From contig CAVOMX010000010.1 of the NCBI GenBank assembly GCA_963697165.1, forward strand, positions 1 through 64,000: a DNA stretch of 64,000 nucleotides. The letters are read 5' to 3'. Source of the stretch: Candidatus Bathyarchaeota archaeon. Its GTDB lineage: Archaea > Thermoproteota > Bathyarchaeia > Bathyarchaeales > Bathyarchaeaceae. Made by a program: the position numbers. Of this stretch, positions 29,101-32,100 are shown piece after piece (the first letter of the stretch is position 1; each line of letters opens with the position of its first letter).

Positions 29101-32100
29101 TTACATCACTTCTCAGATCCTTAACCTGACTCGATAATCCCAAAATCTGTCGTTCTAATTTTTGCACTCGCTCAGGCATTAAAATACTCAACAGCTGCAT
29201 CTCTGCTTAAATGATCGATCTCACCCTCTAACTCTCCGGGACTATGATCCATTTTACGTTTTGGAGTAGAGATTGTAAAGTATCTACTAAGTAGTTTAGC
29301 TATGGGATCGTCAATCGCCAATTCGTAACCTTTTCCAACTTACTTGTACCTCACCTAACAAAACACTATACTTACTCATCAAAGCATGGGCAACCCGATC
29401 ACCCAAATTCTTTGCTAAACCAAACAACTCACCAGGATCCTTATCATACAACCATTCCACATGAAATATCCAATTACGAGAAGTCTTACGAACACTAACA
29501 CCATGAACCAAACCAAGCAAAGCAGTCCAATTCACCATCTCAACTCTCCTAAAATCATCAGCATGATAGAATCCCTCCCTGACAATCGAAAATAAAACCT
29601 GACACTTATGCAAGCGAAATACACTATTACTATAGACAACTCTCTCAACTTTGCTCTTAAATTGACCCCAAAACTTGACGAAAAACCGAAACAGGCAATA
29701 CCACACTTCTGAGACACCAAAACCAAAAAGATTCCACAAAAAACCAATACATTCCTCAAGCAAATATGTGTCATCTGGCTTCAAAAATATGAGTAAAGTA
29801 TAAACATGTGTACTCCCAGTCAAAGTGAAGAGGGTTAAAGTTGCCTGCAATTGAAGTAGGAAGAATCTGCGTCAAAATAGTAGGGCGAGAAGCAGGAAAA
29901 AAATGCATAATCGTAGACGTTGTAGACAAGAACTTTGCGCTAATCACAGGTCCTAAAGCTGTCTCTGGAATAAAACGGAGACGATCTAACATTAATCATC
30001 TAGAGCCAACCAACGAAAAAATCGAGATAAAACGAGGCGCAACCGACGAAGAAATCAGCGAAGTACTAAAGACATCAGGTAAATTAGAAGAAATAGCAAA
30101 AACAGTAAATCCCGCCCTATCCTAACTCTTTTTTCCATTCTGGAGAAATATTATGGGAAGAATCAACCAACCGTGGGAAATCAAGCGCAGCTTGGTAGTT
30201 AAAGCTGAGGAAGAAACTAATCCTCGCTTCGGTCACAAGCCTGAAGAGAGACCAATCAAAGATTACATGCGATTTGGAATAATTAACGTAGACAAACCTG
30301 CTGGACCATCAAGCCACGAGGTTACAGCATGGCTTAAAAGAATCCTCAGTCTTGAAAGAGCCGGTCACGGCGGGACCCTTGAGGCTTAATCTGGCCGGGG
30401 AAATCCCAAAGTCACTGGTATTCTACCTAATGCCTTAGACGATGCTACAAAGGTAATTCAGGCGCTACTACTAGCAGGTAAAGAATACGTTTGCGTAATG
30501 AAGCTTCATTCTGAAGTTCCAGAAGACAAAGTGACAAAAGTTTTAGACGAATTCCAAGGACCGCTATATCAGCGACCACCTGTAAGATCAGCGGTTAAAC
30601 GACAGCTCAGAACAAGAACAATCTACTACATAGACTTCATGGAGATGAACGAACGAAATGTTCTCTTCAGGGTCGGATGCGAGGCGGGAACATACATACG
30701 CAAACTCTGTTATGACGTCGGTGAGGTTCTGGGATGCGGCGCTCACATGCAAGAGCTACGCAGAACAAGAGCTGGACCATTCATAGAAGACGAAAGCCTA
30801 GTCACGTTACATGACATATCTTATTTGTATAGCCAGTGGGAAGAAACCAAAGACGAAAGCATACTTAGAAAATTTGTTTCACCAATGGAAAAAGCACTAT
30901 ATATGCTGCCAAAAATCCATGTACGAGACTCTGCAGTAGACGCTCTATGCCATGGAGCACATCTGACAGCACCAGGAGTGCTATCAATAGATTCTGAAAT
31001 CAAAATCGGCGACACAGTAGCGATTTTAACCCAGAAAGGGGAAGCAGTAGCACTGTCAAAAGCGTTTGTTTCCTCAGATAAGATACTAAAGATGGATCAT
31101 GGTTTTGTTGCAAAGACTCAACGGGTGATGATGCCACGCGGAATCTATCCAAAAAAGTGGCACAGCACCAAATAAAAACAGATTTTTTCGAAAAGACTAA
31201 AAAACCCGTTGATTGCTATTCTACAGTTGTGCCGAGGTGTCCTAGAGCAACTTGCGGGAAATCTGGTAGGGAGCAGATTCCAAAAATGGAAGTTTATGCC
31301 TGGAATTTCTCCGACTACGGTCAGCCTGTGATCCATTGGGTCGCGAGGGTTCAAATCCCTCCCTCGGCGCCACAATAACTAATTATTATACTGTCTATCC
31401 GAGGCTTTTTCTTAGTCTTGCAGCTTCTTCGAGATAGTCTTTAGCTCCCTCGTCGTCCCGTTCCATGTAAGCGATAAGAAAATTGCTTACCGTATTCTCA
31501 TACTTTCTGTGTCCAAGGGTTCTTGGTCCAAACTTGATGCCGAGGTCTTCCTGAGCCACTTTAATGTCTAGTAATAGACGTGTTAAGGCTGACCTTAGGC
31601 GCTCTTCTTCCATTTCTGCTCTTTTTGCCACCGCCTTGTACATGTCCATAAGCATGTTGAGGTTCTGCCAAGACAAGTATCCCGCAACGGCATTGAGATC
31701 AGATTTCATGTTCACATAATACCGGTTCAACACTTTCCACTCATCTTCGGTTAACTCATTTAATGCTTCCAAGCCAATGAACTCAGCGGGTATACCCAAC
31801 GAGTACAGTGCTGCAGCAAAAGTTATCGCCCTTGGAAGAGCAATTCCATCCACATTCCTGCTGTAACCAAAGAGCCCTATGTGCAGTTTTCTTGCTCTTC
31901 GTTTAGGAATATACGACACCACACTAGTCACTAAAGGAGCCAAATCCTCCACCACCATCTGATACTTCAACTTGAATTTCTCAAGTATTCCAAGCAAAAG
32001 TTTCTCTTCAGCAGCTTCAATGCATATTCGGTTCGCCATAGGGAAGCTTCTCGTTAAGAACAGCAACAACATGTTTGACATCCTCAACAGGAAAATCATA

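Follow-up and report, generated by a model that had tools for sequence, protein, structure and literature searches.

The window analysed here is a stretch of 64,000 nucleotides (nt) from a Candidatus Bathyarchaeota genome, in which rpl14e (29841–30125, forward strand) is followed on the same strand by the gene for the pseudouridine synthase Cbf5, split by a 21-nt insert. Exon 1 (30153–30381) holds 76 codons and the first base of the triplet that encodes the catalytic aspartate, residue 77; the insert occupies 30382–30402; and exon 2 (30403–31175) supplies the remainder of the Asp codon, 256 further codons and the stop. The host gene is identified as cbf5 by NCBIfam PRK04270 and TIGR00425. ORF calling breaks it into pieces of 78 and 225 amino acids (aa), which match positions 2–66 and 68–321 of a 323-position Cbf5 model, so that the insert occupies the single missing model position, the Asp of GHGGTLDP. 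Translation through the insert reads GHGGTLEA*SGRGNPKVTG, with the in-frame TAA at 30387–30389.

In the minimum free energy (MFE) fold, the insert and its flanks form a strict bulge-helix-bulge (BHB) motif, with a 4-bp outer helix (30372–30375 paired with 30404–30407), a 4-bp central helix (30376–30379 with 30397–30400), two 3-nt bulges on opposite strands (30380–30382 and 30401–30403) and a 4-bp inner hairpin (30383–30396) that contains the TAA. The 5′ exon part of the motif (30372–30381) thus ends with the first two bases of bulge 1, and the insert runs from the last base of that bulge, through the hairpin and the second central strand, to the first two bases of bulge 2. These boundaries are the cut sites predicted by the canonical BHB rule, after base 2 in either bulge (PMC2738675); such cuts restore the Asp codon, one base from exon 1 and two from exon 2, as residue 77 of a 333-aa protein. 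The insert with its stop, the fold and the restored codon had all been described in a first-pass annotation of this DNA and are borne out by the reading frame, the ORF calls and the MFE fold, with a single open frame after removal; its product length of 334 aa needs correction, 334 being the number of codons including the stop. Against shuffled sequences the fold has a modest advantage on its own (z = −1.86, 10 of 200 shuffles being as good). Taken alone the fold is close to chance, and the case for an intron is built on comparison across genomes.

Elsewhere in the window, three overlapping frames on the reverse strand (31395–32966), which we take by an N-terminal motif to be phosphoenolpyruvate carboxylase, together resemble one frameshifted gene and probably reflect further indel errors. 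A reverse-strand fragment at 25791–26744 overlaps a tRNA-Pro(GGG) gene at 25806–25884 and is possibly the remnant of an integrated element; from motifs we assume it to be integrase-like and its neighbouring fragment terminase-like. A 464-aa ORF on the forward strand (27067–28461) carries His-Gly and Gln-Cys motifs, presumably resembling those of caspase/legumain-type peptidases.

Splicing enzymes, a neighbouring tRNA gene and RNA

Two splicing endonuclease (EndA) genes are encoded in the genome, at C15:30929–31483 and C25:27260–27778. Subunit 1 finds its best matches in chains of 180–186 aa (2cv8_A, 3p1z_B and 3ajv_B) and possesses the crenarchaeal loop, with a Lys aligned to K44; the available part of PMC3241643 ties this loop to a broad substrate range. 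The second gene looks like a structural partner, and the enzyme is predicted to be heteromeric, of (alpha-beta)2 composition. The gene rtcB is also present, with two single-base insertions that shift its frame (G000:C12, near 146657 and 147190); these are absent from all five genus relatives examined and are therefore probably assembly errors, and on the same grounds the split rtcB was rejected as a carrier of further introns.

A second candidate substrate lies 55 bases downstream of cbf5, where we place a tRNA-Ser(GGA) gene with three introns (31231–31372, forward strand; introns at about 31246–31261, 31277–31297 and 31306–31322). It is missed in the raw DNA by both ARAGORN and Rfam, and the Rfam search of the window returned nothing useful; ARAGORN at a lowered threshold called 422 genes, which were mostly spurious and were discarded. 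Once the three introns are removed, the first as 31247–31262, one base to the right, ARAGORN finds an 88-nt tRNA-Ser(GGA). Among 13 related loci tested, 11 keep this three-intron gene, and the D-loop intron is similar to the cbf5 intron in build and upstream flank. As this tRNA is readable only after intron removal, the enzymes of this cell must handle non-standard introns, and we propose that the tRNA is a further substrate of the same enzymes. A strict scan for BHB motifs across the genome gave 973, of which 11 were frame-joining against 10 in the reversed genome. Those other than cbf5 were 11–14 nt long, with one AT-rich case of 69 nt, and among strict motifs no second mRNA intron stood out, cbf5 alone having the full form.

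Four of the 17 RNA runs that match part of the window were compared with 29800–31400, at a depth of 2–3 and with 6–10 of 30 bins covered. No exon joint or deletion was seen in any of the four at this thin cover, in which uncovered places prove nothing, and a 151-nt contig of run X2 spans 30370–30520 with the insert present, i.e., unspliced. The first-pass annotation had reported a 244-nt spliced contig with one mismatch, which was neither reproduced nor refuted in our four runs, these being perhaps other runs than those used there. If it is as described, that contig would come from this or a very near species, since other loci are at most 88% identical (86–88% over 30176–30440 for the nearest named loci, Ca. 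Bathyarchaeum), and no intron-less member was found among the 24 matched genomes of the genus. What support there is from spliced RNA in this lineage is that contig, and it stands or falls with the earlier description. For the homologous crenarchaeal intron, splicing has been shown by cDNA and in vitro (PMC2738675).

Pairing and stop codons in 318 introns

The site was collected from motif scans of named GTDB genomes (at least 120, at least 121 and 60 rows) and from genome-search loci, with a motif gap of 0–45; among the listed motif-scan matches, 261 of 301 rows were cbf5 with an insert. Duplicate contexts and 40 motif matches outside cbf5, the latter kept as a control, were left out before counting, giving 318 distinct cbf5 inserts of 11–41 nt. 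The central helix is complete (4/4) in 301 of these and lacks one pair in the other 17, while none of the 40 chance matches has all four pairs. On its exon side this helix takes in the Thr wobble base and the opening base of the Leu codon. The wobble base is paired in 317 of 318 inserts (C-G 243, U-A 60, A-U 9, U-G 5, unpaired 1), compared with a mean of 254 and a maximum of 264 in shuffles, and the adjacent Leu position is C-G in 286, U-A in 22, U-G in 2 and unpaired in 8.

Both positions covary with their intron partners. Mapped on the Cbf5 phylogeny, about 12 of 13 independent pairs co-change at the Thr position (none in the opposite sense; median p 0.0005), as do 7 of 8 at the next pair (again none opposite; median p 0.016). 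The Gly codon is GGG in 218 of 318 genes with the intron vs 38 of 222 intron-less genes, and the flanking codons in general are unconstrained where the intron is missing, the constraint being limited to intron-bearing genes. Archaeal tRNA and rRNA BHB introns have the motif and the enzymes in common with the cbf5 intron; unlike theirs, the cbf5 exons are coding, so pairing on the exon side is maintained by way of synonymous positions in the codons. Compensatory changes of this kind are what would be expected of a spliced BHB, and are unlike what a dead gene or an assembly error would produce.

A second regularity concerns the reading frame. All three length classes occur among the 318 introns (85, 110 and 123), and every one of the 85 introns with a length divisible by three (3n) contains an in-frame stop within at most nine codons, the other two frames having stops in 14 and 18. 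Among the 233 frameshifting introns the in-frame stop is found in 120, and stops in the other frames in 43 and 46. The claim that every insert contains a stop does not hold in full, as a 20-nt insert in G205 shifts the frame without one. Within a set of 312 introns, the stop depends on the helix junction codon in only 9 of 83 cases, and with one intron drawn per 75%-identity cluster the counts with and without a stop are 24/0 for 3n introns vs 35/42 for the others (largest p 1.4e-5 over 200 draws). An independent-pairs test of the rule, weak when taken alone, gave about 6:0 over 14 pairs (median p 0.03, range 0.002–0.25). The simplest reading is that the rule reflects selection against a full-length Cbf5 lacking the catalytic Asp, a protein that might still take up places in H/ACA particles. 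Cells with the cbf5 intron are not known to possess nonsense-mediated decay. The rule does not appear in the main text of PMC2738675. A likeness exists to the counter-selection of stopless 3n spliceosomal introns in eukaryotes, where retained introns are likewise barred from a full-length product (Jaillon 2008, as cited in PMC2911113). The eukaryotic bias, however, is genome-wide and is tied to nonsense-mediated decay in the part of PMC2911113 available, whereas the cbf5 rule concerns one intron across species, in 85 of 85 cases.

Distribution and history

The range of the intron was counted by the match length of one motif (gap 0–45) in samples of genomes, whose record titles may mislead. A reversed-pattern control gave no match in these searches, except for two in one of the three phyla that were found intron-less. 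In the organism's own genus the intron is present in all 24 motif-matched genomes (25 searched) and in the family in 39 of 48 (60 searched), with lengths of 18–41 nt. Its reported presence in 30 of 30 family loci, at 18–26 nt, has to be revised, since nine of the matched family genomes are without it, including all five of genus g2; one genome, G728, holds both intron-bearing and intron-less forms of cbf5. Across the class Bathyarchaeia it is found in 89 of 145 matched genomes (161 searched; 26 of 31 families) and is missing from 56, and in the Thermoproteota sample in 79 of 138 (156 searched; 24 of 31 matched families). Of 15 genomes missed by the motif that were checked, 13 had cbf5, one of them cut by a contig end; five carried a BHB intron of 13–76 nt, three of these in further, unmatched families, and seven had none. 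The extremes of size come from L631 (G660), L332 (G578) and G003, which include a 76-nt intron whose BHB is perfect and 11-nt introns in which the inner helix is all but absent. No intron the size of those that hold homing endonucleases was found among the 318 copies (11–41 nt, under a motif gap of at most 45) or the 12 motif-missed genomes (longest 76 nt).

Beyond Thermoproteota, 164 of 171 genomes were motif-matched in the Asgard phylum (that of a Borrarchaeum record, by NCBI lineage). The intron was present in 20 of 150 listed matches, 18 of them in four genome blocks (3, 5, 6 and 4) and two as second copies; named records with it are L075, L339, L342, L347, L362 and L377. Several of the Asgard loci lie deep in large contigs (e.g., G443:C1:1483399 and G411:C1:835871) and rpl14e adjoins cbf5 in all nine intron-bearing Asgard loci tested, so misbinning does not explain them. 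In two DPANN phyla, sampled around centre genomes chosen for carrying the intron, it occurs in 8 of 145 and 4 of 81 genomes. Three phyla whose centre records are titled Thermoplasmatota, Methanobacteriota and Methanothrix gave 0 of 58, 0 of 28 and 0 of 65 (0 of 151 in total), a 45-base motif match there being set aside as chance without a BHB; a sample meant for Halobacteriota fell in a DPANN phylum already sampled and was left out of the counts. Groups with the intron are Bathyarchaeia, Brockarchaeota, Nezhaarchaeales/Culexmicrobium, Marsarchaeota, Thermofilaceae and records titled Caldarchaeum, Terraquivivens and Calditenuaceae, together with Jordarchaeia/Freyarchaeota, Borrarchaeum, Aenigmatarchaeota and Nanoarchaeia, and the same scans return Sulfolobales and Desulfurococcales with similar intron ends. 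The first-pass annotation was thus right to extend the intron to Bathyarchaeia and understated how many further lineages have it.

Several records were kept out of this range. Intron loci of Bathyarchaeia type in L250 (titled Thorarchaeota) and in L059, L105 and L214 (titled bacteria) are likely misbinned, as are the contigs with second cbf5 copies in G476, G562, G602 and G728. Among records titled Methanosarcinales, L445, L447 and similar ones have a Cbf5 that groups with DPANN, and the L445 genome shares its phylum with G752. Some Cbf5 proteins have another residue in place of the catalytic-motif His, namely L633 (Ser), L634 and L641 (both Gln) and L640 (Ile), three of the four with the intron.

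For the history of the site, 623 Cbf5 rows were reduced to 417 and then 276 by dropping those with an exon 2 shorter than 200 aa, with X residues or with identity above 78%. On a FastTree phylogeny of the 276 proteins (136 with intron), at least 28 presence/absence changes are needed, compared with at least 80 for shuffled labels. Intron-less Bathyarchaeia and Desulfurococcaceae are nested inside intron-bearing groups, which reads as repeated precise loss. A recent case is represented by L629, a 9569-base metagenome contig whose intron-less cbf5 retains intron-type flanks and whose Cbf5 is 84% identical to that of the intron-bearing L076; on this comparison it appears as a recent precise loss. 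As the sole match in a metagenome scan for the junction, L629 had been considered as spliced cDNA, which was rejected because it is only 66% identical to the window's gene and is DNA of another lineage. The DPANN introns are found in single tips or small groups within supported intron-less clades (support 96 and 99), a pattern that suggests recurrent gain or rare survival instead of whole-gene transfer. One sequence, L070, sits on an odd branch in FastTree.

Deep branches, including Asgard, are poorly resolved with IQ-TREE (18 of 70 branches starred), and an Asgard clade that FastTree supports at 94 is absent from that run and is not claimed. With this resolution and at least 28 changes, gain and loss are indistinguishable on the single-gene tree. 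The intron probably dates back to the Thermoproteota ancestor and has since undergone precise loss on many occasions, including in the cultured lineages sampled in 2009, and common descent with the crenarchaeal copy is likely inside Thermoproteota. An origin below the Thermoproteota–Asgard split is conceivable, though we favour it somewhat less than its converse.

Mechanism, alternatives and significance

The closest known system, found in Sulfolobales and Desulfurococcales, is an intron of the cbf5 pre-mRNA (Watanabe 2002 and Yoshinari 2006, both as cited elsewhere), which Yokobori 2009 (PMC2738675) describes as 16–44 nt long and as separating the first letter of the catalytic Asp codon from the second, the very site claimed earlier and recovered here. 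Gene, site, BHB cut rule and, as predicted here, heteromeric EndA are the same and the sizes overlap; the BHB of those orders is mostly relaxed (PMC2738675), whereas that of the present intron is strict. Haloferax HVO_1309 carries a BHB intron in its 5′ UTR, likewise an mRNA substrate of the splicing endonuclease (Schwarz 2020, PMC7714728), although, as far as the available parts of PMC7714728 and PMC10485636 go, it differs in its non-coding position, its gene and the type of enzyme. Gain of the cbf5 intron is placed by PMC2738675 in the ancestor of Sulfolobales and Desulfurococcales, and a 2023 review (PMC10485636, in its available part) still gives it for a small group only. No report of it outside these two orders was found in the literature searched, which was mostly open-access, and an earlier one is possible; a term search of the available main text of 10.64898/2026.10.13.758758 gave no mention of cbf5, and the part of PMC3082918 available holds no passage on pseudouridine.

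By every feature that can be tested in DNA, 30382–30402 is a cbf5 pre-mRNA intron, and its splicing in this lineage is predicted from sequence. Structure, site, covariation, the enzyme genes in the genome and the distribution together indicate that it is very probably a real intron spliced by EndA and RtcB, the same as in Sulfolobales and Desulfurococcales, with both cutting and joining deduced here. We propose the following mechanism. The cbf5 transcript would fold into the BHB, the (alpha-beta)2 endonuclease would cut each bulge after its second base and RtcB would join the exons, the codon for the catalytic Asp77 being created only by the joint; an unspliced message would yield a 78-aa stub without the catalytic residue. 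Cbf5 output might in this way be tied to the splicing capacity of the cell, with selection keeping the unspliced message untranslatable past the intron and so avoiding a full-length dead Cbf5, a proposal on which our judgement is evenly poised. Frequent precise loss (56 of 145 Bathyarchaeia, and L629) argues against an essential regulatory role.

The insert would not be spliced at all if it marked a pseudogene, an assembly error or a hairpin bypassed in translation. The single-base errors of this assembly (in rtcB) and the observed RNA contig that holds the insert, from the four runs, could be read in this way, but all 24 matched genomes of the genus have the two exons intact and conserved and exon–intron pairing is kept by compensatory change, and cDNA splicing of the homologous intron is published (PMC2738675). 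Furthermore, the three length classes (85, 110 and 123) mean that no single recoding event could bridge all copies, and we consider such explanations highly improbable. A different question is whether a real intron descends from one old ancestor or has arisen repeatedly at a preferred site through transposition or reverse splicing of tRNA-type introns. Recurrent gain would account for the DPANN introns in tips and small groups inside intron-less clades (8 of 145 and 4 of 81) and for the likeness to the D-loop intron of the neighbouring tRNA-Ser, and the available part of 10.64898/2026.10.13.758758 reports it for Asgard tRNA introns. It sits poorly with the presence of the intron in most Thermoproteota families with intron-less groups nested among them, with a position that is base-identical in every copy (in part a consequence of how the motif was built) and with the lack of any homing-endonuclease-sized intron among the 12 motif-missed genomes (longest 76 nt), and as an account of the whole distribution it seems unlikely to us.

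The intron could also be spliced and yet functionally neutral, persisting because precise loss is rare, in which case the stop rule would be a guard against harmful read-through and not a sign of regulation. The many precise losses with no visible cost, the recent one in L629 with its intron-type flanks and the free variation of the inner sequence, from 11 to 76 nt, all agree with this. Neutrality explains less readily why several classes and phyla have retained the intron at one site, with no other of this type evident among the strict motifs of this genome, and why in-frame stops are enriched even in introns that shift the frame (120 of 233, against 43 and 46 in the other frames); we regard it as a credible, if rather doubtful, account. 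Returning to a real and inherited intron, our broadest reading is that it was present in the Thermoproteota–Asgard ancestor, which would place it among the oldest datable mRNA introns; that it was kept as a splicing-gated switch of the dyskerin homologue, lost in most Asgard and toward eukaryotes, and able to re-enter the same codon in DPANN; and that its unspliced message must stop, paralleling the eukaryotic 3n rule without the decay machinery. Taken jointly, these steps are speculative and we offer them as such.

What gives the present analysis its value is how widely the intron ranges, its losses and the stop rule, and not any novel mechanism. Earlier accounts treat protein-coding splicing in archaea as rare and particular to two hyperthermophilic orders (PMC2738675 and the available part of PMC10485636). 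A practical consequence is that gene calling breaks this essential gene in two in over half of the genomes sampled from the class. Natural presence/absence pairs become available by the hundred for studying precise intron loss, and the absence of stopless 3n introns offers a clean, testable rule. If the distribution holds, the intron would have been gained no later than the base of Thermoproteota, its absence from intron-less cultured lineages would be due to loss, and an mRNA would be spliced in Asgard archaea, to which eukaryotes are most closely related.
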